NCBI GenBank assembly: GCA_020440645.1
Contig: JAGRNR010000004.1
Span: 12,762-76,761, forward strand
Reading direction: 5' to 3'
Source: a bacterium
GTDB taxonomy: Bacteria > 4484-113 > JAFGCY01
DNA: 64,000 nucleotides
Part shown: positions 41,257 through 64,000 of the stretch, piece by piece
How positions within the stretch are numbered: the first letter of the stretch is position 1
Layout of the letters: each line of letters begins with the position of its first letter
Translations under genes and position numbers: made by a program
Notes under the pieces: model-generated
Seen by the model: the letters and a program-made list of their open reading frames with translations, nothing else
What the model was told of the DNA's origin: nothing
Database searches by the model: none

Positions 41257-41285
41257 TTGACTACCGAATGGGTACAATGTAACAT
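41257..41285 (+). promoter_or_regulatory. Candidate sigma70-type promoter TTGACT-N17-TAACAT upstream of the first prepilin-like gene
   Basis: TTGACT 41257-62, 17-nt spacer, TAACAT 41280-85 preceded by TG; SD AAGGA 41299-303; ATG 41313. Confidence 0.4.
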
Positions 41286-41312
41286 TGCCCGTTGAATGCA
41301 AGGACGGACCAT

Positions 41313-42743
41313 ATGAATAACTGGGGTCGAAAATCAGATGGAACACGGGGTTTCTCGCTCATCGAGCTCCTCGTTGTGCTGCTCATTTTCGCGATCCTGA
41401 TCGCGATAACTGTTCCGAGCTTCATCTCCTCACGGCCGGAGCGCAACCTCGCAAGTGCGGTGGACATCTTCGCCACCGACTTCGGCTATGCGCGTGCCAA
41501 GGCCGAGCAGACCGGCAGCCGGGTGTTCATGGCATTCGACATGTCGCCGGATGCGCGCCAGTGTGAGGGCTGGTGGGACACCACCAGTGACACCGCGAGC
41601 AATGCCGCCCCGAGCGGGACCCCCAGCGGCAGCTACATCAACCCGAACAACCCGGGCATCAGCCGTTCGGCGAACACCTACTTCATCGTGGAGGAACGTC
41701 CGCGCTGGATCGAGGTGGATTCCAACGGCTTCAAGCCCTATGACAGCGGCTTCAACCCGAGCCTCGTGACCGGCCAGGCGCCGTTCACCTACCTCGACTG
41801 GCTGAACCAGTACGACGCGTGGAACGCCGGCATCGCCGACTACCCCGTCGAGCCGCTCTATCCCTACGACGCTGCAGAGACCTTCAGCGCGGCGGGCCCG
41901 GAGGATGGCGCCTTCATGGACATCTCAACCCCGCTGATCTTCTATCCGCAGAACCTCGGCCTCGGTGGCAGTGACACCCAGGACTATGTGGACCGCTGGA
42001 TCGACGGCCCGACCGCCCCGACCTGGGACACCGGCGACCGCAACGACCAGGCGATGAAGGTGTTCTGCGCAGCGGACGAGCAGGAGATCCTCAGCTTCGA
42101 CCGCACAATCGACTTCGACGTGAACGGCCTGCGCATCTACACCCATGGTGTGGACAGCCAGCGTATGAAGGACCAGGTCCTTGACTACATCATCCTGAAG
42201 AAGGTTGAGCTGCCCGAGGAAGTCTTCTTCCTGAACCCCTGGAAGAACACCTACCCGGCCGGCTGGGAGGATGTGAACAACGACGGCACGATCGACGAGT
42301 TCAAGTACAAGGACATGCAGTTCCTGCAGTACCTGATCACCTTCTCCCCCGACGGTGAGGTGTACAAGTCCGAGTGGACCTTCGACCCCGAGCCCTTCCC
42401 GGACGGCAACTACTACGGCCAGTCCCATGGCCGGATCCAGGACCGCCTGGAGGCCAGTGGCGTGCATGCGGTCTACATGGTGATCGCGGAGACCGTCGAC
42501 TTCGGTTCAACCTCTCCGATCGCGAAGACCATGGTGCAGGACAACAAGAAGGCCAACAGCCAGAGTGCCGGCAGGGTGTTCACGTACTGGAACAACAGCG
42601 GCAAGTACTTCGTGGATGACTACACCCCGAACGATAAGGCGCATTTCATCGACCGTGATGACCCGCGCCTGGACCTCGGTAACGTCTCCCCCCAGGTGGC
42701 ACGCGAGTTCGTGTACCGCCAGGACTTCCTCTCGAAGATCTGA
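41313..42743 (+). CDS. Large (477 aa) prepilin-type N-terminal cleavage/methylation domain protein (pseudopilin-like 1)
   Basis: Class-III signal MNNWGRKSDGTRG|FSLIELLVVLLIFAILIAI with Glu+5. The ORF track starts at an upstream TTG (41292). Body rich in aromatic/acidic residues, no other domain recognised. Confidence 0.75.
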   Translation: MNNWGRKSDGTRGFSLIELLVVLLIFAILIAITVPSFISSRPERNLASAVDIFATDFGYARAKAEQTGSRVFMAFDMSPDARQCEGWWDTTSDTASNAAPSGTPSGSYINPNNPGISRSANTYFIVEERPRWIEVDSNGFKPYDSGFNPSLVTGQAPFTYLDWLNQYDAWNAGIADYPVEPLYPYDAAETFSAAGPEDGAFMDISTPLIFYPQNLGLGGSDTQDYVDRWIDGPTAPTWDTGDRNDQAMKVFCAADEQEILSFDRTIDFDVNGLRIYTHGVDSQRMKDQVLDYIILKKVELPEEVFFLNPWKNTYPAGWEDVNNDGTIDEFKYKDMQFLQYLITFSPDGEVYKSEWTFDPEPFPDGNYYGQSHGRIQDRLEASGVHAVYMVIAETVDFGSTSPIAKTMVQDNKKANSQSAGRVFTYWNNSGKYFVDDYTPNDKAHFIDRDDPRLDLGNVSPQVAREFVYRQDFLSKI

Positions 42744-42812
42744 TTACTGTAATTCAAAGTTCCCTGATGGGTAACATAAGGTATGCGACAGGTGGATGAA
42801 TTGAGGCACAAC

Positions 42813-43898
42813 ATGCGTATCAGGATGGCAGGCAGGCGGGGTTTCTCCCTGCTGGAGCTGATGATCGCGCTTACGATCCTTGCGATCGCACTGGTTCCCG
42901 TGGCCTACTTCTACAGCAAGTCACTGCAGATGGTGGAACAGTCCACCGTCCGTACCCGTGCCCTGATGCTGGCCCAGGAGCGCCTGGCGGAACTGCGCCA
43001 GATGCCCTATGACCAGATCTACTCGAACGTCACCCCGAGCCCCGTGCAGGTGCGTGTCTACCAGGCGGAGAGCGCCATCGACACCGCGACTGCAGACTGG
43101 TTCGGTTACGATTACGAGAGTGCCGGTGACTGGCAGGCGATGTGGCACTACCCGCTGCCGCTGGACTACAACCCGTATGACCCGGCGACCCAGGGTTACA
43201 ACAACGCCGTCGGCGTGAACCGCAATACGCCGTCCAACCCGATCGGCGGCATGTTCACAGGGCATGTGAACTTCAACACGCCCAACAGCTTTGATTACGA
43301 GTACGAGCCGATCGGTTTCTACCGCTTCCGCATCAACCGCCAGAACGCCCTGCTTGAGCAGGCCGGCCCAGGTGTGGACCCGGTCAATGTCCCGGACATC
43401 GCCGACGTGCGCATGATCGACCGGCGCAGCCTGCCCCAGGTGGAGCAGCGCCTGGACAACCTCAACAACATGGACAATTTCCGCACGGGCTACGACCAGC
43501 TCGTGGAGCAGTTCGGTGAGTTCGGCCGTCGCACCATCGTGCTTGACGTGGTGACCAATGTCGGCGGTGAGAACAACCCGCTGGACACTGACGGAGACAA
43601 CTTCGACCCGAATGACGACCGCGACGGCGGTGCCACGGCACTTGACCCGTACCCGATCACCAAGGGACCGGACAACAAGTTCCAGGTGCTGACCCGCGGC
43701 GGCGGCCCCGGCAAGCTGATCATCGTGCAGGTGTTCTGGCTGCCGCGCAACGCCCCGGAGGGCTACATCCCGTTCAGCGACCTGAATGTGATCGACCTGC
43801 GCACCTTCGTCTCCCCGACGAATGAGTGGACCACGCTGGGCGAAGGCACGGGTCCGCTGACCAACAACAAGAGCCTGATCATCACCCCGACCAACTGA
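42813..43898 (+). CDS. Prepilin-type N-terminal domain protein (pseudopilin-like 2, ~361 aa)
   Basis: MRIRMAGRRG|FSLLELMIALTILAIALVPVAYFY; likely start 42813 (ORF track 42783). Confidence 0.7.
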   Translation: MRIRMAGRRGFSLLELMIALTILAIALVPVAYFYSKSLQMVEQSTVRTRALMLAQERLAELRQMPYDQIYSNVTPSPVQVRVYQAESAIDTATADWFGYDYESAGDWQAMWHYPLPLDYNPYDPATQGYNNAVGVNRNTPSNPIGGMFTGHVNFNTPNSFDYEYEPIGFYRFRINRQNALLEQAGPGVDPVNVPDIADVRMIDRRSLPQVEQRLDNLNNMDNFRTGYDQLVEQFGEFGRRTIVLDVVTNVGGENNPLDTDGDNFDPNDDRDGGATALDPYPITKGPDNKFQVLTRGGGPGKLIIVQVFWLPRNAPEGYIPFSDLNVIDLRTFVSPTNEWTTLGEGTGPLTNNKSLIITPTN

Positions 43899-44154
43899 TC
43901 GGACCGGAACATAGTCCGCTGGCCATGGTCAGACAGGCCGGCCGGAATCGCAGGGCAGGGAGAATACGGGTGGAAAAACCGAATTCTTGTCGGAATTCCC
44001 AGCTTGATGGCTTGCGCGGATTGCGTGCGGCCTTGTTTGGAAGCGGCCTCAGGCCGGTGCAGGAGCTTCCGGGGCTTTTAGGTATTGGAAGTAACCTGTT
44101 CTATAATAAAACGTCTACATACTCGACGCTACACCTAGCACTGAGGCGTATCTC

Positions 44155-45177
44155 GTGGTGAAAACTATGCACAGAGACACAAAGGCTTTTACCCTGGTTG
44201 AGTTGCTGGTGGTAATGGGCATCATCCTGATTCTGGTGTCCATCGCCCTGCCGGCGACCAATTCCGCTCGGTCAAAGGCCAAGGACATGGAAGTCAAGAA
44301 GGGCTGCAATGACATCCAGGCGGCACTGGAGAAGTACGGGGTGGCCAAGGGTGGCTATCCCGGCGTCCAGTGGATCCAGGACTCAAACGGCGATTACTTC
44401 GCCGGCCCGGGACTGATCGGCGGCCTGCCGACCTACAACGGCGCTGAGCCCCAGAAGGACTTCTACGTCCCGAAGGATGACAGCGATGCGCGTGGTCCCG
44501 GCAACCAGGCTCCCTACTTCCCGGACGAGACCCCCAACCCGTCCGTGCTGGATGCCCTGATCGTCAGCGGAGAGCTGACGGATTACCCGGCAAACCCCTT
44601 CGTGAGGACCAACGGTGGCCTGAAGGCGCAGATGTCCAACCTGTTCCTGTTCAGCCCGCAGGGCGTGAACGGTGACACCCAGCCGGACGTGAGCGACCCG
44701 AACACCATCAACTGGAACCGCTACCTCGGCAGCAGCCAGTCGATGCGTGCCAACTACGCCGACTACGGCCGTGGCCACTTCACCTACATCCCGCTCAACC
44801 CGCAGAATCTCAGTGGCACGGACTTCGCCGGTAACTGGGGCGCACTGAGTGGCCAGGACCGCAGCGAGTACTACGCCAAGTGCAAGGGCTACATCCTGAT
44901 CGGCTGGGGCGGAAGCCGCGCCGATGACAGCCAGGCCAAGGGCCTGAGCGAGAAGTACTGGAGCAACAGCGCCAGTGCTTTCGACTTTGACAACAGCCTC
45001 GTGGCGGACCCGCTGGAGCAGGTGCTCTCGAATGTCACCCCGGCGGGCATCCTGCGCGGTGACGTAACGGACAGCGACGGCGGCATCGGCACCTTCGGCC
45101 AGACCCTGCCGGGCGGCGGTCCCGACATTGACAACGCCTTCTACGGCGCTACCTTCATCAAAATTACCGGGAGCTGA
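44155..45177 (+). CDS. Type IV pilin/GspG-like pseudopilin (candidate major subunit; 336-340 aa)
   Basis: (MVKT)MHRDTKA|FTLVELLVVMGIILILVSIALPATNSARSKAKDMEVKKGCNDIQAALEKYGVAKGGYP resembles GspG/PilA N-terminal helix and alpha-beta loop. Ala rather than Gly at -1. A 257-nt upstream intergenic region contains a perfect TATAAT (44102-44107). Alternative start ATG 44167. Confidence 0.75.
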   Translation: MVKTMHRDTKAFTLVELLVVMGIILILVSIALPATNSARSKAKDMEVKKGCNDIQAALEKYGVAKGGYPGVQWIQDSNGDYFAGPGLIGGLPTYNGAEPQKDFYVPKDDSDARGPGNQAPYFPDETPNPSVLDALIVSGELTDYPANPFVRTNGGLKAQMSNLFLFSPQGVNGDTQPDVSDPNTINWNRYLGSSQSMRANYADYGRGHFTYIPLNPQNLSGTDFAGNWGALSGQDRSEYYAKCKGYILIGWGGSRADDSQAKGLSEKYWSNSASAFDFDNSLVADPLEQVLSNVTPAGILRGDVTDSDGGIGTFGQTLPGGGPDIDNAFYGATFIKITGS

Positions 45178-45180
45178 TTG

Positions 45181-46212
45181 ATGCAGAGCAGATACATCAA
45201 GCCTGACTGGGGCACACAGCTGCGGGGCTTCACCCTGATCGAGCTGCTGGTCGTGATCGTGGTGATCTCCATCCTCGTGGCGATCGCCCTGCCGAACCTG
45301 CAGAAGGTCAAGCGCAAGCAGATGGAAGCCCAGACCGCGACCCAGGTCAATGAGATCCAGAAGGCGCTCGAGGCATTCGGTACCGACCATAACGGCCAGT
45401 ACCCCTTCCGCGTGACCTGGTATGACAACGCCACGGTCAGCGACCCGAACTTCGACCCATACGTCGCCCGTGACACGGGCAGCGGCCTGACCAGCGACCC
45501 GGGCGACCGCTTCTCGCTGGGCATCTGGGGTGGCGCGGAGCGCGTCACCCGCGAGGGCTACAACATCAACACGGTGCAGGACATCGAGCGTCCTGACCTG
45601 CTGCCCCAGCCCTACGCCGCAAACTGGAACTACAACAACTTCTACAACCGCTTCAACCAGTACAGCGACCCGCTGGTGGCGATGGGCTACATCGGCGAGT
45701 ATCCGCCGAACCCCTTCATGAAGCGCCAGATGGGCAACGTGCTCTGGGAGTACGGCGATGCCAACTGGAAGAACGGTGGCCCGGCGCGCCTGGATCCCTC
45801 GATCCCCGGCGAGAACGTGGTGCCGACCCCCGGCGACTTCACCTACACGCACTTCTACGGTGTTGACAACGCCAACGACTACACCTACCCGAAGGGCGTG
45901 GTGGCCGGCAAGGCCGGTTACAACGTGACCTACCCGAGCGGCGCGGTGCAGGACGGCAAGTACTACATCGACGTCGTTGACAGCTACCAGATCTGGGGCT
46001 ACGGCGACATGCGCCTCAACGGCAGCTGGTACGTGAACTACCCAAACAACTCACTCGGCCTTGCGGTGCGCGGCAATGAAGCCGCCGGCAAGGACTGGAA
46101 TGGCAACGGTACGAAGGACATGTTCGAGCGTGGTCTGGTGACCTACGCCAAGCGCAGCGGTCAGGGGTCGACTACGGCAACTGACAACAGCGGCAACAAG
46201 GTTGAATTCTAA
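45181..46212 (+). CDS. Prepilin-type N-terminal domain protein (pseudopilin-like 4, 343 aa)
   Basis: MQSRYIKPDWGTQLRG|FTLIELLVVIVVISILVAIALPNL; start 4 nt after the preceding stop (coupled). Confidence 0.7.
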   Translation: MQSRYIKPDWGTQLRGFTLIELLVVIVVISILVAIALPNLQKVKRKQMEAQTATQVNEIQKALEAFGTDHNGQYPFRVTWYDNATVSDPNFDPYVARDTGSGLTSDPGDRFSLGIWGGAERVTREGYNINTVQDIERPDLLPQPYAANWNYNNFYNRFNQYSDPLVAMGYIGEYPPNPFMKRQMGNVLWEYGDANWKNGGPARLDPSIPGENVVPTPGDFTYTHFYGVDNANDYTYPKGVVAGKAGYNVTYPSGAVQDGKYYIDVVDSYQIWGYGDMRLNGSWYVNYPNNSLGLAVRGNEAAGKDWNGNGTKDMFERGLVTYAKRSGQGSTTATDNSGNKVEF

Positions 46213-46247
46213 TCGCAATGGCAATGGCATTGACAGGAGCAGAAACG

Positions 46248-47312
46248 ATGCGCAGTCGCAGGGGTTTTACACTGGTGGAGATGCTGGTCGTGATCGGCAT
46301 CATCGGACTGCTGGTGGTGACACTCGTCCCACTGGTCAAGGGTGCACAGGTCAAGGCCAAGGAAGCGGCCATCAAGGCCCAGATGTCCGGCATCGAGACA
46401 GGGCTTGCCAACTATGCCCAGAACCACAATGGCAACTACCCCGGCGTGGCACTGGATGCGATGGCGACCTACCAGGACCATGCGCTCGGTGATCCGCAGT
46501 TCTATGCGGGTGGCGGCGCCGGTTCACTGGCCCCTCAGGCCAACCAGATGGTCAACGGCATCCTCGGTGGCGTTGGCCACTACAACGGCTCCAGCACAAA
46601 CGTGTTCGAGCAGATCAAGAACGTCAAGGACACCCCGTTCAGCGGCAATGAGGACACCGCCCGCCTGTTCGACTCCCTGATCCTGACGGACAGCATGCCG
46701 GAGTACCCGGCCAACCCATTCGTCACGAACGTGAACACCGCCAGGCGTGACCAGATGCGCAACGTGTTCCGCTTCAACATCAACATCGGCGGCGGTTTCG
46801 ACCCGGCTGATGTGTTCGAGCCGGGCAACCCCTCTCCCGGCGGTTATGACGTCTCCTTCTACTGCTCGATCAAGGGTGATGGCAGCCAGCCGAACGTAAC
46901 CACTGCCACGGACCCGTTTGACAGTGCCCGTACGCTGGTCTCCCAGGACCCGACCGGCCTGCCGCTGGCGAGCTTCACCCCGGACGACTACGTCTTCGGC
47001 CCGAATGATGGCCGTTACTTCGCCCCCGGTGATTTCGCTTACGTGCCCGTACTGAGCGCGAGCGCAAATCCCTTCGGTGACAGCGCGGCCACTCTCGAGA
47101 ACGAGACCTGGAAGTGGGGCACCAATGTGAGCGGGTACCTGCTTTTCGCCTACGGTGATGCAAAGCACGAGACCAAGGAATACGAGGACGAGCAGCGCGA
47201 GTTCTTCGACACCGGCCTGCCCGGTTACGGCAGCCCCGGCGTGGATACCCTTTATGAGTGGTACGTGCTGCAGCTGTTCGAAGGCGCAATCTTCTACAGC
47301 AAGAAGGTCTGA
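46248..47312 (+). CDS. Prepilin-type N-terminal domain protein (pseudopilin-like 5, ~354 aa)
   Basis: MRSRRG|FTLVEMLVVIGIIGLLVVTLVPLV; AGGAG SD 8 nt upstream of ATG 46248 (ORF track starts 46218). Confidence 0.7.
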   Translation: MRSRRGFTLVEMLVVIGIIGLLVVTLVPLVKGAQVKAKEAAIKAQMSGIETGLANYAQNHNGNYPGVALDAMATYQDHALGDPQFYAGGGAGSLAPQANQMVNGILGGVGHYNGSSTNVFEQIKNVKDTPFSGNEDTARLFDSLILTDSMPEYPANPFVTNVNTARRDQMRNVFRFNINIGGGFDPADVFEPGNPSPGGYDVSFYCSIKGDGSQPNVTTATDPFDSARTLVSQDPTGLPLASFTPDDYVFGPNDGRYFAPGDFAYVPVLSASANPFGDSAATLENETWKWGTNVSGYLLFAYGDAKHETKEYEDEQREFFDTGLPGYGSPGVDTLYEWYVLQLFEGAIFYSKKV

Positions 47313-47318
47313 TGCCGC

Positions 47319-47337
47319 GCGCCGGCTTATCCGGCGC
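47319..47337 (+). terminator. GC-rich hairpin GCGCCGG-cttat-CCGGCGC just after the stop of pseudopilin-like 5 (no T-tract)
   Basis: Perfect 7-bp stem read from sequence; lacks U-tract, so its function as a terminator is uncertain. Confidence 0.3.
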
Positions 47338-47473
47338 TGGCCAAGGGCAATTTCCGGCGGGGGCTTTTGAGTGCCGCCGCAGCTGGGAATAACAGGTATA
47401 GGCACCCCGTCTGCTTACAGATTGGCGGGGGCACTCTCAGGCCGGCTGGCGACAGGCCGGCCCAGGTGAGCGG

Positions 47474-49330
47474 ATGATCAAGAACAGATACAGACGCAAC
47501 GGTTTCACCCTGATCGAGGTGCTGGTGGTGGTACTCATCGCCGCCATCGTCTTCTCGGTGATGTTCACCGTGCTCGGCACATCCTTTGAGGTGCTGCGCG
47601 TTGGTGAGAGCCGTGCCCAGCTGAACAACAACACACGAGCGGCCCTGGATTACGTGGTGAATGACATCAGCACCGCGACCTCCATTCCGCTGGAGTATGA
47701 CCGCGACATCAACGGTTACCCCGATGACCTGCCGTACACCAATGGCGAAGGTTATGACGAGGATGCCGTCTGGCGCGTGGCCTGGCGGGTCAACAACCTG
47801 CCGGTGATCTCCGCGGGTTACTTCCTGAGCTGTGCCTGGAGTGACAGGCTGCGCCTGACCCACCAGTCTCTTGTGGCCGACACCCCCCGGGGCAGCAACC
47901 AGACCTTCGCCGTGCCGAAGGCGATCCGCCGCGACGGCTCCCGCGAGCTGGTCTACTACGACAGCCTGCTGCGCCTCGTGACCCCGGCCAACGATGAAAT
48001 GCCTTACTACCTGTCCGGTGAGTGGGATCGCAACGGAGACGGTGTTTTCGACGGTGCTGACCTGCAGAACTCCGGCCCCGGTGCCGGCCGTGGCGTGCTG
48101 GACGGCTACCCGGATGTGGTGGTCTCCGGTGCCCAGAAGGAAAGCTCCGTGCTGGTGCAGGACCTGTTCTACGCCTTCGCTGACAGCCCGGACATCGTGC
48201 GCCGTGAGCGCCAGATCCCGATCAGCGGCAACATCACCCGCGTGAAGTACGAGTACCTGCACGAGGTGCCGGTCTACCTCTCGCGCGTGAACGGCGGCAA
48301 CGTCGAGATCTGCTACCAGAGCCTGCTTGACGGCAGCATCAACTGGATTGCCGCCAATGATGAGCGTGACAATTCGATGGTTGGCATGGAGCCCCTGGTG
48401 GACCACTGGGAGATGCGCCAGATCGACGTGGCCTTCAACGGCACCGACGGGTTCTACGTGGATCCGGACACCGGCGCGCAGTACGGCGGCTTCAGCTGGA
48501 AGCTGCAGGACAGCTACCCCGAGGGCTTCGACCCGCTGAAGCTGACCGGTGACCACGTGGCCCCGCCGACCGGAGTCGGCCTCGGTGAGGTGACCGGCGG
48601 CACACTGACCAGCGGCTGGAACTGTGCCGTGTTCGACAACATCGATTCCAACGGCGACGGTCGCAACGATAACTCCCCGATCGACCGCTTTGCCTATGTG
48701 ACCACCAGCGTGAGCGGTGGTGAAGTGATTGACGGTGGCATCGCACAGTTGCGTCCCGACATGGAGCGCCTTCACGGTACCGGCTATTACCAGCGCAGCC
48801 TGAACCCGACCGGCGTCGGTGACCTTGGCGATGCGGACGGCATCCCTGACGGCGATGGCATCCCGGATGACCCGGTGCCCGGCTGGTGGCTGCCCTACAT
48901 GCGCGCCGTGCGTGTGACCGTGGTGTCCACACCGAACGATGTGATCGAGGAGCGCCGCAACAAGAGCGGTAAGGCTGGCAAGACCGGTTCCACCGTGTAC
49001 TACCGCCTCGACAGCCCGATCCCCTTCTCGGATCCTTCCCGCACCCAGCCGCTGTACAACCAGCAGGCTGACTACATCGGCGTCAACAAGGACCTGGTGA
49101 TGACCCGCACGGTCCCGGTCAACAGCCCCCTGGTGGAGAGCGGAGCCTATCCGTACTACCTCGAGCTGATGACCAGCCCGCGTGACAGCCGGATCCAGGA
49201 GCGCCGCGTGGACCAGAACGTGTTCGACGCGGTACGCACCCTGTTCCGCGATCCGCTGGATCCGAGTGCGACCATCCGGGCCAGCACTCCCTCGGAGAAG
49301 CTGCAGGAAAAGGACCCGGTCTCGAACTGA
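47474..49330 (+). CDS. Large (618 aa) prepilin-type N-terminal domain protein (minor-pilin-like 6)
   Basis: MIKNRYRRNG|FTLIEVLVVVLIAAIVFSVMFTVLG; long body with no other recognised domain. Confidence 0.7.
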   Translation: MIKNRYRRNGFTLIEVLVVVLIAAIVFSVMFTVLGTSFEVLRVGESRAQLNNNTRAALDYVVNDISTATSIPLEYDRDINGYPDDLPYTNGEGYDEDAVWRVAWRVNNLPVISAGYFLSCAWSDRLRLTHQSLVADTPRGSNQTFAVPKAIRRDGSRELVYYDSLLRLVTPANDEMPYYLSGEWDRNGDGVFDGADLQNSGPGAGRGVLDGYPDVVVSGAQKESSVLVQDLFYAFADSPDIVRRERQIPISGNITRVKYEYLHEVPVYLSRVNGGNVEICYQSLLDGSINWIAANDERDNSMVGMEPLVDHWEMRQIDVAFNGTDGFYVDPDTGAQYGGFSWKLQDSYPEGFDPLKLTGDHVAPPTGVGLGEVTGGTLTSGWNCAVFDNIDSNGDGRNDNSPIDRFAYVTTSVSGGEVIDGGIAQLRPDMERLHGTGYYQRSLNPTGVGDLGDADGIPDGDGIPDDPVPGWWLPYMRAVRVTVVSTPNDVIEERRNKSGKAGKTGSTVYYRLDSPIPFSDPSRTQPLYNQQADYIGVNKDLVMTRTVPVNSPLVESGAYPYYLELMTSPRDSRIQERRVDQNVFDAVRTLFRDPLDPSATIRASTPSEKLQEKDPVSN

Positions 49331-49344
49331 CCTGAAGCAAGAGA

Positions 49345-49379
49345 ATGGCCCGGCAACGTCCGGGCCATTTTTGCTTTTA
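49345..49379 (+). terminator. Canonical intrinsic terminator ATGGCCCGG-caacgt-CCGGGCCAT + TTTTGCTTTT
   Basis: 9-bp GC-rich stem, 6-nt loop, downstream T-tract; 15 nt after the stop of gene 47474-49330. Confidence 0.7.
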
Positions 49380-49458
49380 CTGCACGGATGTGAAGGCTCA
49401 ATTTTCTATATATATGGTGTAGATTCCCAGCTCTTGGGAATAATAAACTGCGAGGCTT

Positions 49459-55400: not shown

Positions 55401-58400
55401 GGTGACCTCCGGCAACTCCACCAGCAACGAGCCCTCCGGTACGGTGCTGCGTGACACGAACAACAACTTCGCCCAGGCTGGCAGCCGTGGCGTGAGCGTC
55501 GGCGACCTGGTGCTGAACATCACGGATGGCTCCACGGCCAACGTGCTTGACGTCGTCAGCGGATCCGAGCTGCGCCTGAGCAACCCGGGCGACCCGAGCT
55601 TCGGCACGGGCCTCGTGAACGGCACCGGCGTGAACCGCACCGGCGTGGTTGATGGCAATTCCGTCAACCAGGTGATCGACCAGCTGGCGGCCCCCTACGA
55701 CTTCGTCGGTGACATCAACGGCCCGGCGCAGGGTGGCATCATGGTGGGCGACACCGTGCTGCAGACCCGTGACGGCGTGCAGATCGGCACCTGGACGGTG
55801 AGCAGCACCGCCAACAGCCCGGGCATCCTCGACGTGGTGAACAACACCTTCACCGGTACGCAGACCGCGACCGTGAATGCCTTCACCGACAACGGCGGCG
55901 GCAACTGGGACATCACCCTCAACCGCTTTGCCAACAACAGCCTGATCGGCCTGGTCCTCACCAACGTGACGGATGGCAACTCCACCTGGACCATCACCGC
56001 CTTCAACGGCGGCAATGACCTGACGGTGCAGCTGATTGCTCCCGGCGCGGGCCTCGGTGTGTTCAACATCGGTGACCTGGTGAGCATCAACGCGGTGCCC
56101 GCCGAGTGGGTGGTCGATGACATCTGGACGGTCAACATCCCGGCCAACCAGTTCCGCATCGGCTACGAGTACGAGATCTTCACGGAGAACGGCTTCAGTG
56201 GCAACGCCTGGGCGGATGCCACCTTCGCCGACTTCAACACGCCGATCGAGTTCCACATCGAGATGAACTACCCGTTCGACCTGAGTGCCGCCGGCGCAGC
56301 CGCCAGCTTCATCGAGGTTGACTGGGACAACGACAGCGTGGTCGACGACATCTTCTTCGTCGCCGACACTACCCGTGGCGATGGTACGCAAAACGGCATC
56401 GAGGTCGAGAACGCGGTGATCACCCACAGCTTCGGGGCTGGTCCCGAGCTCAATGGCGCCGGCTACACAGTCGGCCGCTACTGGGTGAACTCCTTCGCCG
56501 CTGGCCAGACCGGCAGCGAGCGCTACGGCGGTGGTGCGGGCTTCGCCCTGCCGGTGGTGCGCGTGGGACGTGACGATTACGACACGGACCTCAGCACCCT
56601 GAACGTGGCGCAGTGGAACAACAGCCGTGACCACAAGGTGACGATGACGGCGCTGTACCAGACCTTCGCCACCCTGACTGACAACCCGCTGCCGGGCAGC
56701 ACCAAAAATGCCGTCCGCCAGTACGAGACCGTCGACCAGCTCTACGTGCCGCGCGGTGACAGCCAGTTCGCCACGAGCCTGACCAACTGGGTCAGCTACA
56801 GCTCGCCCTTCATGACGAGCAACGTGCCGGGCATCACCCAGATGCTGCACCAGTCGGTGCATGGCGAGGGCAGCAGCTTCAACTGGCTGTCCGATGCCAA
56901 CGCCAACACGCTGTGGAACAACGACGGCAGCGAGAGCCCGCAGGATGGCAACCCGTCCTCGACCTACGAGTACGCAGTCAACAACGGCTTCAACAACTGG
57001 GCCGAGGTCCCGCTGAACGTGCGTGGCGCCAGCTTCCCGCAGGCCGCCCCGAACGTCGGCCGCCCGCAGCCCAACGGCATCTTCGACTACTACACCGCCC
57101 GTCGCGGCGTGTACAACGGCTGGGCCTGGAGCAGCGACGTGCTGCCCTCCAGCCAGCGCAGCTTCAGCTTCGACAGCCAGGCCGTGTTCGTCGGCGACCG
57201 CAACGGCTCGTCCAGCCCTGAGCGCCGTGCACTCGGTGTGGACATCTACATCGATTCCATCGTCGCCAGCAACAGTGACCCGATCCGCTTCACGGCCTTC
57301 CCGAGCGGCGGTGCCAACGAGTTCAACTCCTACAGCTACCGCTGGTTCGTCGAGTACGACAACGGCGGCGGCTTCCAGCCGGTCGACATGGACAACAACA
57401 CGACCACCAACCCGCCGGTCTCCGCCAGCATCTCCGGGCCGATCCTCGTGCCCTACGAGGACATCCAGGACGAGGCGTTCTGGGTGCCCGCTGACAGCGG
57501 TGCCGGCGCATGGCGCGTCTGGTGCGAGGTCAGCGACGGCAGCGGCGTGGTCAACTCCGCGATGAAGACCTTCACGGTCGTCGAGCCGCCGCACAGCGTG
57601 CACGTGATGGCCACCCCGCCGAGCGGCAGCACCGGTGAGTTCATTGAGTTCTGGGTCTCCGCGGACGGCGGCACCCCGGGCTACGACCTCGAGATCGACT
57701 ACGACGGCGACGCCGTGTATGACGATGTGGTGACGGTCGGCGACGGCAGCATCCACATCTTCGGCAACGTCTACAACACGCCGGGCACCTACAACGTCGA
57801 GGTGCGCTCGACCGATGACAGCGGCAACGTCGCGACTGACACCACGGTGGTCCGTGTCGCGGAGAGCATCCCGCTGTGGGGCGACCTGATCGTCAACCCG
57901 CCGAGCGGCGTGGCTCCGTTCATCGCCCAGGTGCACTACGCCGTCAGCGGTGGTCGCAGGCTGGCCGACGGCGGTTACAACGTGAACCTCGCCCTGCTTG
58001 ACAGCAGCGGTTCCAGCCAGGGCAGCGTCAGCCGCACCGATGCCGACAGCTTCGGCGGCGACGGCCCGGATGACCCGCGCCTGCCGGGCGGCAACGATGA
58101 GCCCGTGACCTTCGTGGTCCCGAGTGCCGGCACCTACACCGTGCAGATGACCGTCAGTGACAACAGCGGCGGCGTGGTCACCGTGAACGACACGATCTTC
58201 GCGGACGGCTACATGACCCCGATCGAGTACGGCAACACCGCGCCGCGCGTGGTGACCGACCGTGAGGGCCGCCCGATGCACGCGGTGCGCATCTGGACCG
58301 ACCCGCACCTGACGCTCAGCGATGACACCACCCAGGTGTTCGGCAACAAGCCGGACTCCGAGGGACGTGGCGGCCGCCTGATGGAGGCCGACCTGCAGGT

Positions 58401-59982
58401 GTTCGGTGACATCGTCGGTGTGGACACCAACCAGGCCTTCCGCTCGATCGGCAACTACGCCTCCAAGGACCCGCTGGACGTGCCGCAGTGGCAGGTCAGT
58501 TACAGCCAGGGCTTCTTCGGCAATGCGAACATCGAGGACTACTACGACACCTACACCGAGGGCCGTGTGAACATCAATACCGCCTCGGAGGAAGTGCTGA
58601 CCGCGCTGTTCCGCAAGATCATCACAAACCGTGCCTATGACTATGACGTGGTGGATGACATCGATAACAACGGTGTGAACGAGACCTACCACTTCGTACG
58701 TGACCAGGTGAACGACAGCCACATGTCCGAGGCTGCCGCCCGCGTGCTGGCCCGCAAGGTGATCCGCTACCGCACCCTGTACTACGACCAGAACAAGCCG
58801 ACGCCGGCTGATGCCGACGGCAACTTCGGTTACACCCAGAGTGCGAATGCGGCTGCTGCCTCCCTCAACCTGGGTAACTTCCGCGTGGACCACCTGCCGA
58901 TGATCGGCCCGTTTGACGGTACCAACCCGCACCAGTACGGCATCGCCAACCGCGATGGCGCGCTGGGCCAGGCCAACACCCAGATGCTCAACACCTGGGA
59001 CAACATGGCCGGCAGCTACTACAACCTGAACAACGGCGATGCCGCGAACATGTTCTACTCCACGAGTGACATCGCGGTGGTGCGTGAGCCGCTTGCCATC
59101 AACATCGGCATCGATGTGGACGGCGACGGCGTGCCGGAGCCGGGCTTCAGCTTCAACGTGAACGAGAGCAAGGAGAACTACGCCAAGTACCTCAACGACG
59201 TGGCGAGCAACAGCAACTGGGAGAACAACCGCTACGCCGGCGGTGGCGGATTCGGTACCTGGGCGGCCACCGGCCAGTACCCGTCCGACAACAGCGGCAA
59301 CAACTACTCCCGCTGGTCCTTCGACGCCCGCCACTACTTCACCTACAGCAGCGGCAACCAGGGTCTGACCGTCGGTACGGATGGCAGCTTCAGCCTGGGT
59401 GCCCTGACCGGTGTTGAGGACGTGGTGGACGGCCGCAACAGGGTCGGCGTGTTCGAGTCCAACGGCGTGACCGCGGGTACCTACATCCCGAACCCGCCGT
59501 TCCAGAACATCTTCGACCTCTACAAGGTGATCGACGACTCGGCCGGCAACCAGAGCTTCCCGCTCACCGGTACGCTGGATGCGACCATCACGCTCAACGG
59601 CAATGACCGCTCGTCCGGCCTGCGCCGCTACTCCGGCCCGTCCGCCTTCCGTTACGAAGAGTACTGGGATGCTGGCGCAGGTGAGTTCGTGGTCCGCTCC
59701 AACTGGCTGGACGACATCGCCCCGTTCATCACCTGCCGCAGTTACGTCTACCGTGTGGACTCCAGCGCGGCGATCACCGCCAGCGGCGGAACCTCCAGCG
59801 CCCTGCTGGATACCTCCACCCTGGCCCGTGACCGCTCGAAGACCGTCATCCTTGATGCCGGCCCGCTGGCGAACAACCGTGGCGTGGACCAGATTTCCGA
59901 CCTTGACGCCTCCAGGGGTCTGATCAGCCCGGCACGCAGTGCCAGCTACAAGATCCTCTGGTTCTCGGATAACTCCGAGTAG
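49459..59982 (+). CDS. Giant (3507 aa) GspK-like minor pseudopilin fused to adhesin-type repeats (IPT/TIG, PKD/Ig-like, Asn/Gly/Thr-rich beta regions)
   Basis: N-terminal KRGHRGVVLLAVIIFVALLLPLVTLVL hydrophobic segment lacking Glu+5 (as in GspK, QRGVALLIVLL…). HhH-like motifs GRINLNIF (50464-50500), LDQLLNVPGMTRAKFNRLKDYL (51159-51225) and C-terminal GRVNINTASEEVLTALF (58561-58620). IPT-like domain ~54361-54660; PKD-like ~57630-57870 and ~57880-58200. GAGG SD before ATG 49459; alternative in-frame GTG 49609. 10.5-kb uninterrupted ORF flanked by terminators. Confidence 0.8.
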   Translation: MRTYTNLVGGSPESGSASTADLTPGTDMTGISNGGNTPQHAPCGQLRGRAVKRGHRGVVLLAVIIFVALLLPLVTLVLTSLNTEAVSTAEAIKGHKLDLASQKALNDAISLVVQQKSLPDYYSSANQPATAIVVLDPVSGFRRDQVPDSGVVGAAGLDDILGTGDDYWTSPRGDRSVLPTDVYDHTRNYEFDFSFSQMHSPTYLGQPSLLSSTNRYNGTSPNTGETIWLFNPYLAVAVDDDADGIDDGYDPNDAGGDPFDGKEAQLHGNGGFPNADEPRLNGPGSAVERSLDNGNNIRDYMLNSRIAIYESVFTDLDRGPVPTDLLKSYADVTDEAGRINLNIFCKKVRVLMPEAADVDYNLEGLATNDFNYNEQLNELGFKWIDNPLFPDRLTNQRWNWNIPAGTLSNDGDIDFGTLDPSTGIPDPTPDGYSWPDLGENVQHFYLGDTDGDGISQGNEAARHSVEMLTSLPGVDLELALNILEYLNPSQDTLNAIDPGYADGSVEPNIDPTIGAAGYRYDVANVTPPLTALGINLAGGTVGSIFWDFAASDEDDMPLPQPFALSSLDQLLNVPGMTRAKFNRLKDYLTIHSYDTNVIGTYITDVGPDADLVNAYEAGDPFFFGQVRRTVPDDMRDTDNVNDLRYDVTATAGGFSLEDYRDRAEEMYAYIREHLPSTNFRKITLPAVDRTGRSGASDHMTPNDDPRYDPTGGGLLVPHRDSEANPYNVGAFGHQFPTSDEAFTNFAGYPALNPEFSLDSCLSIVLYRNGTPFTADDYTYDWNGVNMAAHPASPGIGNLFGGGAFFFIERIFGIFGGGFDFGPNNNPPDGFDFATLANTNNANPVVTPHGPGVFTAANLLNPGTFDSAADLLQVPLYEFSSMSVSLMSDPPSDYRDPIVNQNGIVSYYATFSDVVPVSWYFDNVTGPDGNLGTADDPAQDVVLYMLYFNYANRTGVFPSAGGPYDAPSLSADTVQIPLTAQQIRSVSPVFPGMTGNVTIQAYDNFNNLDVLGPDFTNSPAFASTLAPLGGVGSLGRNFSYQQVPYPLGGGVTDDGNWRPNEGNAWDTGVAPVQWPGWAWTGEGDPYATGRILAYRWDDNANEPEDPELRADDITKVFLQNNTEAAIPFAVNILPVRTGGDTYDIYSSYGGADTSGGGSYLLFDWEYRDTLGPDDDPDDFDGTWPTEQPGQLINNPIQIRVNPEGNTVTLHMYDLRSFVDSSGLPIASGTPALPGNIYAGGRVQTTPSDGGTFPVDYGGGYPPVPTAGYAFDSAVISPIETAAGFQAQLASHEVSVFDNDTSVEVEMSAAGGDLNYNWELRVLDATLGNGAGGPYQGPDGAGPIASFPGLGSPPRPSRVTPPGFDYAAAELVPGTLLVVAGSSSSPEWNTFFDPSGLPNNTEYWLRLRVTENGGTTDTVFSKLVKDDESSSSTGTAIPPEMNASITLRELGDSRLGFTASASVDGGRDGYGYYWVLTRPKYNGTGNHVLDSAIPMETVDAAAPIVNLDSLTTGGGAVSTTVQMRSNDASPSFEFSQLDNYDNETGAAGADGIPDAQGVYFVHCFVLDRNNLLPSSGQSFIAHDVAQVTLSNLGTGGSGVPDTSGIARTPMAVLAANPPGNASISAGTNNSAAGGANPPYIGSATIDPAIEPDVAANGQAIVIRGFNFDPVASNNTVHFAGGVSATGAGVTAPSGVDILNIGGSPYGQQELTVRVPDGARTGFITVQTPGGTSDRRYIFQTGFNVTFDLIGSLSVNDAAYLQYDLDFQGDGKIDYSYSSLSNPSGGRQLIGSNLGITHDYAGDGIGNYNATLTVKDLVSGRTAVSHQLVMIHDLANVSGTNLVLASGFIGNIFLAGTPSFTDGAASFISAGVLPGDLVTNLNTGATTSVVSVISQNEVGCGSLSAPQWNIGDAYSISRFVDSNGAYGILADIWPDIDTRGASFNPQPGSGLAFRSAVGGINTALARRKWQIDLNGTSGTRGGEQVTSGNSTSNEPSGTVLRDTNNNFAQAGSRGVSVGDLVLNITDGSTANVLDVVSGSELRLSNPGDPSFGTGLVNGTGVNRTGVVDGNSVNQVIDQLAAPYDFVGDINGPAQGGIMVGDTVLQTRDGVQIGTWTVSSTANSPGILDVVNNTFTGTQTATVNAFTDNGGGNWDITLNRFANNSLIGLVLTNVTDGNSTWTITAFNGGNDLTVQLIAPGAGLGVFNIGDLVSINAVPAEWVVDDIWTVNIPANQFRIGYEYEIFTENGFSGNAWADATFADFNTPIEFHIEMNYPFDLSAAGAAASFIEVDWDNDSVVDDIFFVADTTRGDGTQNGIEVENAVITHSFGAGPELNGAGYTVGRYWVNSFAAGQTGSERYGGGAGFALPVVRVGRDDYDTDLSTLNVAQWNNSRDHKVTMTALYQTFATLTDNPLPGSTKNAVRQYETVDQLYVPRGDSQFATSLTNWVSYSSPFMTSNVPGITQMLHQSVHGEGSSFNWLSDANANTLWNNDGSESPQDGNPSSTYEYAVNNGFNNWAEVPLNVRGASFPQAAPNVGRPQPNGIFDYYTARRGVYNGWAWSSDVLPSSQRSFSFDSQAVFVGDRNGSSSPERRALGVDIYIDSIVASNSDPIRFTAFPSGGANEFNSYSYRWFVEYDNGGGFQPVDMDNNTTTNPPVSASISGPILVPYEDIQDEAFWVPADSGAGAWRVWCEVSDGSGVVNSAMKTFTVVEPPHSVHVMATPPSGSTGEFIEFWVSADGGTPGYDLEIDYDGDAVYDDVVTVGDGSIHIFGNVYNTPGTYNVEVRSTDDSGNVATDTTVVRVAESIPLWGDLIVNPPSGVAPFIAQVHYAVSGGRRLADGGYNVNLALLDSSGSSQGSVSRTDADSFGGDGPDDPRLPGGNDEPVTFVVPSAGTYTVQMTVSDNSGGVVTVNDTIFADGYMTPIEYGNTAPRVVTDREGRPMHAVRIWTDPHLTLSDDTTQVFGNKPDSEGRGGRLMEADLQVFGDIVGVDTNQAFRSIGNYASKDPLDVPQWQVSYSQGFFGNANIEDYYDTYTEGRVNINTASEEVLTALFRKIITNRAYDYDVVDDIDNNGVNETYHFVRDQVNDSHMSEAAARVLARKVIRYRTLYYDQNKPTPADADGNFGYTQSANAAAASLNLGNFRVDHLPMIGPFDGTNPHQYGIANRDGALGQANTQMLNTWDNMAGSYYNLNNGDAANMFYSTSDIAVVREPLAINIGIDVDGDGVPEPGFSFNVNESKENYAKYLNDVASNSNWENNRYAGGGGFGTWAATGQYPSDNSGNNYSRWSFDARHYFTYSSGNQGLTVGTDGSFSLGALTGVEDVVDGRNRVGVFESNGVTAGTYIPNPPFQNIFDLYKVIDDSAGNQSFPLTGTLDATITLNGNDRSSGLRRYSGPSAFRYEEYWDAGAGEFVVRSNWLDDIAPFITCRSYVYRVDSSAAITASGGTSSALLDTSTLARDRSKTVILDAGPLANNRGVDQISDLDASRGLISPARSASYKILWFSDNSE

Positions 59983-60027
59983 TGACAAAGACTGGTATCA
60001 CCCAGTCCTGCAATTGAGACGATTTAT

Positions 60028-60062
60028 GGACCCCCGGAGCTAATCCGGGGGTCTGTTTTTTC
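60028..60062 (+). terminator. Canonical intrinsic terminator GGACCCCCGG-agctaat-CCGGGGGTC + TGTTTTTTCC
   Basis: 10/9-bp GC stem, 7-nt loop, T-tract; 46 nt after the giant gene stop. Confidence 0.75.
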
Positions 60063-60083
60063 CGAATAACTTCCGAATAACTT
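60062..60083. repeat. Perfect tandem direct repeat CCGAATAACTT x2
   Basis: 60062-60072 and 60073-60083; lies between the terminator and the secretin promoter (-79 to -58 relative to predicted TSS). Confidence 0.6.
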
Positions 60084-60105
60084 AAAAGATAGGTACTCAG
60101 GTTCA

Positions 60106-60134
60106 TTGACAAGAGATTTTTCCTAGCTTAAAAT
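60106..60134 (+). promoter_or_regulatory. Near-consensus sigma70-type promoter TTGACA-N17-TAAAAT for the secretin/pilM unit
   Basis: TTGACA 60106-60111, 17-nt spacer, TAAAAT 60129-60134; predicted TSS ~60141; ~110-nt leader to ATG 60250 (SD GAGGAG). Confidence 0.55.
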
Positions 60135-60249
60135 ATCCAAATTGCACCGTAGCCCCGTGCTACTGTTAGCGCTGCACAGTTGGATACTGCCCTGTTGGTA
60201 TGGGCAGGAAATTACACGGATTGTTAATCTGTCCGTGAGGAGCGATTGG

Positions 60250-63021
<2,772 letters not shown>

Positions 63022-63034
63022 AACCTGAAACCGA

Positions 63035-63120
63035 GGGGTCAGGCCTGGACTGTTTATGTTCATGCCTGACCCCGCGGAACATTTAGTGGGGCGCCCGTGT
63101 CTCTAAGTACGGGTTTCTTC
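63035..63120 (+). terminator. Two hairpins between secretin and pilM: GGGGTCAGGC-19 nt-GCCTGACCCC and CCCGT-gtctctaagt-ACGGG + TTTCTTC
   Basis: Read from sequence; the second has a short stem followed by a T-rich tract. May act as a partial terminator/attenuator; pilM has its own SD (GGAGG). Confidence 0.35.
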
Positions 63121-63133
63121 GGTGGAGGTTAGA

Positions 63134-64000
63134 ATGGCTCAAGGAGCTGCAAAGAAATACGATGTAGGCCTTGATCTGACGTCGAACGAGCTGCGTTGTA
63201 CCGCAATCAGCCGCAAGGGCAAGGAAATGATCCTGGAGCGCTTCGCGGTTGGTGAGATCCCGTCCTCGGTATTCGCCGCCGGACGTGTGGCGGAACCCGG
63301 ACAGCTCGGGAACCGGATCAAGGAGATCCTCAAGGAAAACGGCATCGTGGCGCGTCGCGCCATCATCTCGCTTTCCGGCAAGGCTGCAATCACCCGCATC
63401 ATTGAACTTCCCAAGATGGGCGCTGCCCAGACCAGGCAGGCCATCTCCCTGCAGATCAACCAGTACGTACCCTTCCCCCCGGGTGACACCGTGTATGACT
63501 ACAAGGTGCTCCCGGCCCGTGAGGGTGCGAACCCGGCGATGCAGGAAGTGCTGCTGGTGGCCACCCGTGCCACCACCGTCGATTCACTGATCGCAACCAT
63601 GCGCTCAGCGGGCATCGAGTGCGAAGGTATCAAGATCACCTCGCTGGCGGCCTGGAACCTGATCGAAAGCAGCATGGAGGGTTACACCTCCGCAGTCGGC
63701 CTGATCGACATGCGTGACACGGTGACTGACCTGTCCTTCTTCCTGAAGGGCCAGTTCCGCCTGTCCCGTCCGGTCGAGCTTGGCTACAACAACATCCTGG
63801 CCAAGGTCGGGCAGCTGCTCGGCGTCAGTGCCCAGGAGGCTGAGGAATACCTCAAGGCCGACCCCGTCGACCTGACCATCCCCGAGGATGAGATCGACCC
63901 GACCGAGGATAACCGCCTGCGCGAGGCCCTGCTCTCCGTGTTCAGCGGCTTCGTGTCGGAGCTGATCCGCTCCATCCGTTACTACGAGAGCCAGGCGCAG
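63134..64000 (+). CDS. pilM: Type IV pilus assembly protein PilM (actin-like ATPase fold), 3'-truncated by window end
   Basis: Hand translation from ATG 63134: MAQGAAKKYDVGLDLTSNELRCTAISRKGKEMILERFAVGEIPSSVFAAGRVAEPGQLGNRIKEILKENGIVARRAIISLSGKAAITRIIELPKMGAAQTRQAISLQINQYVPFPPGDTVYDYKVL… shows typical PilM N-terminal organisation; open to nt 64000 (289 codons). Confidence 0.8.
   Translation, partial: MAQGAAKKYDVGLDLTSNELRCTAISRKGKEMILERFAVGEIPSSVFAAGRVAEPGQLGNRIKEILKENGIVARRAIISLSGKAAITRIIELPKMGAAQTRQAISLQINQYVPFPPGDTVYDYKVLPAREGANPAMQEVLLVATRATTVDSLIATMRSAGIECEGIKITSLAAWNLIESSMEGYTSAVGLIDMRDTVTDLSFFLKGQFRLSRPVELGYNNILAKVGQLLGVSAQEAEEYLKADPVDLTIPEDEIDPTEDNRLREALLSVFSGFVSELIRSIRYYESQAQ

Follow-up and report, generated by a model that had tools for sequence, protein, structure and literature searches.

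Type IV filaments (T4F) have been studied nearly all in cultured Proteobacteria, Firmicutes, Myxococcota and Cyanobacteria, where major pilins measure ~110-210 amino acids (aa) and extra modules are confined to single minor pilins. Here we describe a locus with six oversized pilin genes, a giant gene, a secretin gene and a pilM-pilN fusion gene, at positions 41257-64000 of a 64,000-nucleotide stretch of a bacterial contig (JAGRNR010000004.1, positions 12,762 to 76,761, forward strand; assembly GCA_020440645.1). This whole stretch is called the window, and coordinates are window positions unless given otherwise. For scale, a survey of 1,955 type IVa pilus (T4aP) major pilins put mature length at 141 ± 25 aa on average and at no more than 297 (PMC11046646); modular tip pilins provide a precedent, the largest of the modular pilins in an InterPro survey reaching 860 aa (PMC8179133); and cyanobacterial HpsA is a greatly expanded PilX-type minor pilin of >1,280 aa (bioRxiv 10.64898/2026.02.12.705559).

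A sequence-only reading of this DNA had proposed a T4F locus with oversized pilins, a giant gene and a secretin, and all of these elements are present. Two of its further views also hold: the six pilins are unusually large (340-618 aa, against the T4aP mean and maximum just quoted), and gene order and content are atypical, no curated type II secretion system (T2SS) or T4aP pilin family being matched and the equivalog matches covering the N-terminal helix only. With a confidence a little better than even, we read the locus as encoding the subunits of a filament, together with those non-motor parts that span the envelope, for a T4F machine of the T4aP/T2SS lineage, one with bulky subunits and a putative giant tip adhesin; part of this explanation is that the machine would be characteristic of candidate phylum UBP7 and related uncultured lineages.

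Six oversized pilins

The seven consecutive plus-strand genes upstream of the secretin were numbered P1-P7 in locus order. In Pfam and NCBIfam profile scans P1-P6 all score above the thresholds for prepilin N-termini, with 26-31 bits for N_methyl (gathering score 21.2 bits) and 21-31 bits for TIGR02532 (cutoff 16.3 bits). The class III signal, read directly from the translations, is [G/A]-F-[S/T]-L-[I/V/L]-E ahead of a hydrophobic helix, i.e. with the prepilin landmarks G/A at -1, F at +1 and E at +5. Seven class III N-termini had been claimed; this is right for P1-P6 and wrong for P7, which lacks Glu5 and an N_methyl match.

P1 (41292-42743, +; N_methyl 26.3 bits) is a GspH/FimU-like pilin of 483 aa from a TTG start, or 476 aa from Met8. 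Its best NCBIfam match is GspH (E = 3.8e-10), over residues 19-83 only and at 40 bits against a cutoff of 80; orthologues of 454-617 aa lie at the same position in three related loci (L008, L011 and L009). P2 (42783-43898, +; 371 aa; N_methyl 31.5 bits) is PilV/GspI-like, with best matches to PilV (E = 6.9e-7) and GspI (E = 1.5e-5) confined to the N-terminal ~55 residues. P3-P5 are G-like pilins, their N-terminal helices placing with GspG/ComGC in NCBIfam, and form paralogue groups a, b and c. P3 (44155-45177, +) has 340 aa, or 336 aa from an internal Met; its residue -1 is Ala in this species and Gly in distant orthologues, and its orthologous group is kept in L008, L011, L009 and L007. P4 (45178-46212, +; 344 aa) matches the N-terminal part of GspG (E = 6.7e-12, 45.6 bits, below the cutoff of 88.85), is ~30% identical to P3 and to P5, and likewise has its own conserved orthologous group. 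P5 (46218-47312, +) has 364 aa as called; public NCBI annotation starts it at 46248, which gives the more probable length of 354 aa. P6 (47474-49330, +; 618 aa; N_methyl 30.2 bits) is GspJ/PilW/HpsC-like, its best NCBIfam matches being HpsC (29.4 bits vs. a cutoff of 200), Verru_Chthon protein C (28 vs. 256) and T2SS protein J, all N-terminal only.

The order of best N-terminal family matches is thus H, I/V, G, G, G, J. All of the NCBIfam equivalog matches of P1-P6 span ~50-90 N-terminal residues and fall far under the curated cutoffs; beyond the first helix (alpha1) no family is matched, and Pfam detects no second domain in any of the six. A structure model of P5 has a helix at residues 9-59 and lays out the extra ~200 residues as an elaboration of the globular domain, with a match neither to a solved fold nor to any Pfam family. 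The 220 members of the P5 family all measure ~330-390 aa and have N_methyl as sole Pfam domain. Across the cassette the pilins have masses of 36-68 kDa and the K-position protein 280-440 kDa.

The giant K-position protein

P7 (49459-59982, +), a putative tip protein or adhesin, has 3,507 aa, a mass of 373.5 kDa, a pI of 4.2 and only 7 Cys. Its pilin-like N-terminal segment (RG then VVLLAVIIFVALLLP, in short RG/VVLLAVII) has Ala rather than Glu at +5; the Pfam scan gave no N_methyl match, and the canonical class III signal is absent. The leader measures 7-55 residues depending on the start codon, an alternative GTG start giving 7 residues instead of ~55. Lack of Glu5 is the pattern of GspK/PilX-type subunits, and the P7 N-terminus resembles that of Escherichia coli GspK (QRGVALLIVLMLLAL). 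The helix-hairpin-helix of the GspK model (positions 172-214) is matched in three divergent family members, P7, P0132 and P0133 (E = 4.3e-5, 5e-7 and 1.7e-7), in each case sub-threshold (23-31 bits vs. a cutoff of 130). Within P7 the local sub-threshold GspK matches lie at residues 556-592 and 3037-3053, the second of these, near the C-terminus at the motif GRVNINTASEEVLTALF, being a weak match to positions 1-17 of Pfam T2SSK (E = 0.004).

The sole curated domain of P7 is a PKD domain at residues 2715-2798 (37.8 bits vs. a cutoff of 23.5). When a profile of the P7 family was run against the PDB, ColH-type (collagenase) PKD domains were the only hits; a sequence search of the PDB with the P7 termini returned nothing, and self-BLAST showed no internal repeats at E < 0.01. 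Relatives are few: an exhaustive phmmer search with the first 800 residues found 17 among 1.84 billion representative proteins, and a word search with the same N-terminal 800 aa found one homologue. Full-length relatives measure 2,562-3,747 aa in the phmmer set, with a 4,098-aa example in L019, so that K-position giants range over 2,562-4,098 aa across cassette lineages. The family is conserved from end to end, most highly in the N- and C-terminal ~700 residues and least at ~1,800-2,300.

In the most distant related locus the K-position protein is shorter, at 1,594 aa (L016:1652-6436). It shares the Glu5-less type of N-terminus (ERGVVLIAVLMF) and gives weak, sub-threshold matches to PD40/TolB beta-propellers, reminiscent of a pilin fused to a PilY1-like propeller.

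Secretin and PilM-PilN fusion

Downstream of P7 lies a divergent secretin gene (60250-63021, +; 923 aa; Pfam Secretin 98.7 bits). Its start is most likely ATG 60250 rather than TTG 60142, and an identical protein starting at ATG 60250 is on record. The secretin subfamily models (PilQ, GspD, SctC, MshL and Amuc_1098) all score far under their cutoffs, e.g. 79.7 bits vs. 284 for PilQ and 74.3 vs. 351 for GspD. The protein had been called a Gly-rich secretin, and two Gly-rich tracts (residues 555-588 and 623-650) do lie within its Secretin_N-like domain. These inserts are of low complexity (poly-Gly/Asn/Arg); they recur at the same position in L004, L016, L018 and L019 without conservation of sequence, and are absent in L015.

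The gene that follows, of which the window holds the 5' part (from about 63134 to 64000, +, running past the window end), had been read as pilM. PilM is present, but as part of a 640-aa PilM-PilN fusion, seen in full on the source contig (L001:12885-14807). The fusion scores 157.9 bits for TIGR01175 pilM (cutoff 133), 116.6 bits for Pfam PilM_2 and 35 bits for PilN (cutoff 22.8), and aligns to positions 9-480 of the 608-position Amuc_1101 profile. In the periplasmic, C-terminal region of the fusion we also noted a Gly/Ser tract akin to the secretin inserts. Continuation of the contig for pilN, pilO and pilP had been suggested as a check: PilN is the fused part, and proteins at the PilO and PilP positions follow, namely a 278-aa protein with a membrane anchor and coiled coil and a 352-aa lipoprotein. 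Neither gave a family match in profile scans.

These components bear on whether the locus would build a long surface fibre or a T2SS-like secretion machine, in which a short periplasmic pseudopilus (endopilus) expels substrates, or P7 itself, through the secretin. The top family match is to a T2SS pseudopilin for five of the six pilins (GspH, GspG three times, and for P6 T2SS protein J behind HpsC), P7 matches GspK, and the G-like proteins carry the public label 'type II secretion system protein'. A defined short assembly would fit with the presence of several G-like subunits that are conserved and non-redundant, and the PilM-PilN fusion shares the topology established for GspL. On the other hand, the fusion is PilM above the curated cutoff, plus PilN, and no GspC, GspL or GspM is matched; the secretin reaches 74 bits where GspD requires 351; and a 374-kDa PKD-bearing tip is hard to square with a piston confined to the periplasm. 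We consider the secretion machine unlikely.

Genes beyond the fusion

After the PilP-position gene comes an orphan NuoN-like gene (Proton_antipo_M; L001:16769-18397, equivalent to window positions ~67018-68646), whose product scores just under the NuoN cutoff (TIGR01770, 329.5 bits vs. 332.6). Equivalents occur at L013:4778-6406, L015:13930-15543, L016:14451-16193, L018:10196-11941 and L019:14068-15744. In every lineage examined this gene lies directly 3' of pilMN and the PilO- and PilP-position genes, with no nuo neighbours; PilMN identity over the lineages that have it is 100%, ~90%, 53%, 48%, 35% and 34%. The protein retains the Glu and Lys invariant in E. coli NuoN and NuoM, and its family shares an N-terminal extension and a 'WGGLETIDP' insert, both lacking in E. 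coli NuoN. To our knowledge, linkage of a NuoN homologue (and usually a Wzy_C protein) to pilMN is undescribed for any T4F system; one narrow full-text search found no paper joining antiporter-like or NuoN terms with pilMNOPQ terms.

This recurrent linkage raises the idea that the machine is energised or gated in part by the proton-motive force (PMF), through a NuoN/MrpD-like subunit belonging to the secretin-pilMN operon, and so differs mechanistically from T4F machines driven by an ATPase only. Retention of the Glu and Lys residues would fit this, as would the lack of an ATPase gene near the locus. Synteny by itself, however, proves no physical or functional link; the gene could be a displaced complex I subunit, if these genomes hold a nuo operon that lacks nuoN, and its score is nearly at the curated NuoN cutoff. 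We know of no T4F machine that works without a PilB-family ATPase, and regard PMF energisation as distinctly unlikely.

Next to the NuoN-like gene is one for a 637-aa Wzy_C/TPR protein (L001:18397-20310; also L015:15550-17436 and L019:15753-17684). These Wzy_C proteins have 630-640 aa, are of O-antigen-ligase/PglL type with a TPR-like C-terminus, and occur in most lineages though not in L016 or L018; weak NCBIfam matches are to IctB and to an exosortase-associated O-glycosylation ligase. Family membership suggests that the protein may be a PglL/TfpO-like pilin O-oligosaccharyltransferase.

Sugar-related genes also matter for the idea of an exopolysaccharide-export or motility filament like cyanobacterial Hps (HpsA with HpsB-D), in which P7 and the pilins would act with polysaccharide synthesis. 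The Hps pseudopilin HpsC is the best NCBIfam match of P6, HpsA as a greatly expanded PilX-type minor pilin is the same concept as P7, and besides the downstream Wzy_C gene of most lineages, glycosyltransferase or DegT genes flank some related loci. Yet the HpsC match is 29 bits of a required 200, P7 has no HpsA match at E <= 0.01, and this locus has no glycosyltransferase genes; the sugar genes that flank L016, L018 and L019 lie on the other strand and differ from one lineage to the next. Such a filament is improbable here.

The Wzy_C gene is followed by one for a 499-aa protein (449 aa as called in CP060262.1). In L013 a fourth G-like oversized pilin (P0072; L013:10001-11068), 355 aa long and 42% identical to P5, is encoded ~9 kb 3' of the secretin. 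Two proteins of ~145 aa come after it (L013:11076-11507 and 11580-12020), and both have a single membrane helix and a pilin-like 'G(R/K)Y(G/A)TLEEL' segment, without a class III signal. Further 3' are YbaB, RecR, an ECF (extracytoplasmic function) sigma factor and others, none of them a T4P gene.

Conservation across lineages

In the complete genome CP060262.1 (HK-STAS-UBP7_A-1; candidate phylum UBP7, from activated sludge) the matching locus is 98% identical to the window, and loci ~85% identical occur in three further metagenome-assembled genomes (MAGs), labelled UBP7, Planctomycetales or 'bacterium'. At the protein level, identity is 83-92% in L003-L005, from three other MAGs, and 34-61% in more distant loci. 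The synteny check proposed with the sequence-only reading thus succeeded, the same cassette appearing in related genomes down to 34% identity. It recurs in at least four more distant lineages, where P5-family members are 61%, 44%, 41% and 34% identical; these contexts are L008, L011/L012, L007 (MAG 'Candidatus Riflebacteria bacterium RBG_13_59_9') and L009/L010. There the cassette consists of an H-like pilin (454-617 aa), an I-like one (~330-390), three or four G-like ones (310-392), a J-like one (577-611) and a giant (2,877 to >3,600). Because the same cassette recurs in such distant lineages, we take it to be a real, selected system whose genes are not chance open reading frames. That these frames might be artefacts of high GC content was considered and rejected, the proteins being conserved in many genomes.

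In every lineage P3, P4 and P5 are each represented by a separate orthologue, and their order is unchanged. With mutual identity of only ~30% and separate orthologous groups in fixed order, P3-P5 can be regarded as ancient, non-redundant paralogues. Public annotation of the G-like pilins and PilMN is generic ('type II secretion system protein', 'prepilin-type N-terminal cleavage/methylation domain-containing protein', 'type IV pilus assembly protein PilM' or 'hypothetical protein'), and our literature search found no paper on UBP7 or Riflebacteria pili, no relevant one on the 'Verru_Chthon cassette' and none on this system.

Synteny extends into the secretin operon. The PilM-PilN fusion family has 68 members, and four of the divergent loci (L015, L019, L016 and L018, with PilMN identities of 53%, 48%, 35% and 34%) share the succession of a giant or K-position gene, secretin, PilMN, a ~300-aa gene, a ~340-aa gene and Proton_antipo_M, with Wzy_C next in L015 and L019; the outer flanks vary by lineage. 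Because this order is kept to 34-35% PilMN identity while the outer flanks differ, we conclude that the pilin cassette and the secretin operon belong together.

Transcription signals could be taken to say otherwise. Between P7 and the secretin lie an intrinsic-terminator-like hairpin (60026-60056, +; 13 pairs, 8 of them GC, then TTTTTCC) and, ahead of the secretin operon, a strong promoter-like site (60106-60134, +; TTGACA-17-TAAAAT, 11/12), as might be expected if cassette and operon were mere neighbours from different systems. That view is contradicted by the synteny, since every lineage examined has the secretin-pilMN block directly 3' of its giant or K-position gene, and we hold it to be extremely improbable. 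The two hairpins of the locus are consensus matches only. The other one, a strong hairpin between P6 and P7 (49341-49372, +; 13-pair stem with 7 GC pairs), is a possible terminator or attenuator; its T-run falls within the 3' end of the scanned stem (CCATTTTT), with the tail GCTTTTACTG. Just 5' of P1 is a sigma-70-like promoter match (41257-41285, +; TTGACT-17-TAACAT, 9/12 positions), suggestive only, such sites being no commoner in the region than in shuffled sequence.

A possible assembly pathway

Under our preferred reading, a T4F machine with bulky subunits, assembly could proceed as follows. A prepilin peptidase whose gene lies outside the locus would process the six prepilins (H-, I-, three G- and J-like), which carry class III signals. 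On the model of GspHIJK and FimU-PilVWX, a priming or tip complex would form from P7, which lacks Glu5, and the H-, I- and J-like pilins, on a platform of the PilM-PilN fusion and the PilO-like and PilP-like proteins beneath the secretin; these components are encoded at the locus and would assemble in this way. The G-like subunits of ~36-39 kDa would then be added beneath by a PilB/GspE-type ATPase, also presumably encoded elsewhere. A volume estimate with a rise of ~10 Å per subunit predicts an unusually thick fibre, roughly 9-10 nm, which would push P7 through the secretin. At the surface the acidic, Cys-poor middle of P7 (~2,400 residues with at least one PKD domain) could serve as adhesin or ligand binder. 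Judged by the terminator-like hairpins, the locus may be divided into three transcription units (pilins; P7; secretin-pilMN onward), and separate units would permit low expression of P7 relative to the pilins. Like PglL and TfpO, the Wzy_C protein encoded nearby may attach O-glycans to the pilins.

Several points weigh against this reading. (i) Scans of the 41 kb upstream and of ~20 kb beyond the secretin found a gene neither for an ATPase, nor for a platform protein, nor for a prepilin peptidase. That motor genes are missing from the 64-kb window itself had been stated from the sequence, and profile scans bear this out; the accompanying guess that they sit just beyond pilM finds no support in those ~20 kb. 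Nor do the window and downstream proteins match GspC, GspL, GspM, GspE or GspF. (ii) Matches over ~50-90 N-terminal residues, scoring far under the cutoffs, underlie the H, I and J assignments, which would be provisional. (iii) A short periplasmic pseudopilus rather than a long external fibre may be made, and there may be no single major subunit. (iv) A 374-kDa tip and a fibre of ~9-10 nm would have to fit the secretin pore. (v) Homology of P7 to GspK/PilX is plausible but unproven: the profile of the whole P7 family found no GspK among PDB sequences, a comparison by hhalign between profiles of the giant family and E. coli K-12 GspK gave no significant match (probability <4%), and an AlphaFold2 model of P7 residues 45-700, built on a 10-sequence alignment, was unusable (mean predicted local distance difference test, pLDDT, 37.5), only the long N-terminal helix being moderately confident.

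The earlier 'GspK-like' label for P7 therefore stands in part. It draws on the position after the J-like gene, the Glu5-less N-terminus, the recurrent helix-hairpin-helix match and the weak T2SSK match; profile comparison with the PDB, hhalign and the failed model go against it. The label is weakly supported, and P7 would best be named a K-position, pilin-anchored giant protein. A more specific candidate, in which P7 is GspK with a single ~2,400-residue insertion between two SAM-like domains, was dropped because of the non-significant hhalign result and is a conceivable but unsupported variant.

No mechanism outside the T4F framework has been demonstrated. The boldest version would make the NuoN/MrpD-like protein integral to the machine, coupling assembly, gating or retraction to the PMF, with the three G-like pilins co-polymerising into the bulkiest T4F known, tipped by a ~374-kDa pilin-anchored adhesin; this would be a mechanistically distinct T4F branch, and we rate it a long shot.

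The system raises the questions of what size limit polymerisation sets on a pilin, by what route subunits this big and a 374-kDa tip would get through a secretin, and how a defined heteromeric fibre is assembled. Linkage of the NuoN-like and Wzy_C genes to pilMN offers a concrete, testable hypothesis. The hosts are abundant, uncultured members of activated-sludge and sediment communities, so that the formation of flocs or biofilms may be influenced by a system of giant surface adhesins.

Upstream surroundings

Immediately upstream of the cassette is a run of small-molecule-binding paralogues (35015-39941, +), with an ArsR-type helix-turn-helix regulator, three AHSA1/SRPBCC proteins and two tandem glyoxalase/bleomycin-resistance-fold proteins; it appears unrelated to the filament locus. 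Farther off, 20-30 kb upstream of the pilin genes, are two proteins with a PKD domain and otherwise no family (12711-14456, -, 581 aa; 20828-23170, -, 780 aa). Two signalling-type proteins of ~940 aa are encoded at 26978-29794 (-) and 30758-33586 (-); one has a weak TOMM kinase/cyclase-fusion match, the other AAA_16 and TPR in a MalT-like STAND architecture.

Comparison with known systems

The locus resembles T4aP systems (fimU-pilVWXY1E and pilMNOPQ of Pseudomonas aeruginosa; the minor pilins and PilY1 of Myxococcus xanthus) in its H-, I-, J- and K-type and major-pilin-like subunits, in a large putative adhesin at the K/PilY1 position, and in having PilM, PilN, PilO- and PilP-position proteins and a secretin. 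Motor genes lie away from the locus, as in Pseudomonas; here they are presumed to be elsewhere in the genome. Unlike in T4aP, the subunits are all enlarged 2-4-fold, PilM is joined to PilN in one protein, and a pilin-like N-terminus and a giant adhesin-like body make up one polypeptide, which has no PilY1 family match. Three conserved G-like paralogues, a secretin gene that comes first rather than last in its operon, and the NuoN-like and Wzy_C genes are further differences, and PilM alone reaches a curated T4aP equivalog threshold.

With GspG-H-I-J-K of the T2SS the locus shares N-terminal helices that, for most subunits, best match GspH, GspG and T2SS protein J, and a K-position protein without Glu5 and with a sub-threshold match to the GspK helix-hairpin-helix motif. 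In contrast, the gene order is H-I-G-G-G-J-K, not G-H-I-J-K; GspC, GspL, GspM, GspE, GspF and GspO are all missing at the locus; and the K-position protein is ~10 times the length of GspK (328 aa in E. coli). The best scores for T2SS equivalogs, over alpha1 or one helix-hairpin-helix only, are 45.6 (cutoff 88.85) for G, 40 (80) for H, 25.4 (44.35) for I, 20-23 (65-295) for J and 23-31 (130) for K.

Hps/PilX_EPS systems likewise set a greatly expanded K/PilX-type protein beside oversized pseudopilins. The present proteins are not members by sequence and come from another phylum, hpsE-G glycosyltransferases are lacking, and here the cassette is joined to a secretin-PilMN operon. In modular pilins (Streptococcus sanguinis PilB/PilC, CofB of enterotoxigenic E. 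coli, Thermus ComZ) extra mass is similarly grafted onto a pilin module for display on the filament, whereas all seven subunits are enlarged here instead of one or two minor pilins. Modular pilins in the sense of Raynaud et al. (2021) are defined by a pilin module with an additional recognisable non-T4P domain: P7 has a PKD domain behind its pilin-like N-terminus, while P1-P6 have no second Pfam domain.

The Verru_Chthon cassette (TIGR02596-TIGR02600) and the planctomycete DUF1559/H-X9-DG proteins are comparable as uncharacterised large N_methyl proteins of Planctomycetes-Verrucomicrobia-Chlamydiae-type bacteria, and Verru_Chthon proteins C and D are among the weak N-terminal matches. These matches, at 15-31 bits overall against cutoffs of 70-256, fall short of membership: protein D (TIGR02596) reaches at most 30.6 bits vs. 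70 and protein C (TIGR02599) at most 28.1 vs. 256.5, and protein A (TIGR02600), TIGR04294 and Pfam DUF1559 gave no match at the thresholds used. The Akkermansia cluster Amuc_1098-1102 is similar in its PilM-PilN-type fusion (Amuc_1101, E = 5e-34) and divergent secretin (Amuc_1098, E = 3.5e-11), although the scores are far from those of its own families (118 bits vs. 650 and 42 vs. 750). We know of no giant protein or oversized pilin cassette described for that cluster.

No curated family threshold is reached by the locus, save those for PilM/PilN and for generic pilin and secretin domains. What is different here is the enlargement of all seven subunits together, the three G-like paralogues in fixed order and the extreme size of the K-position protein.

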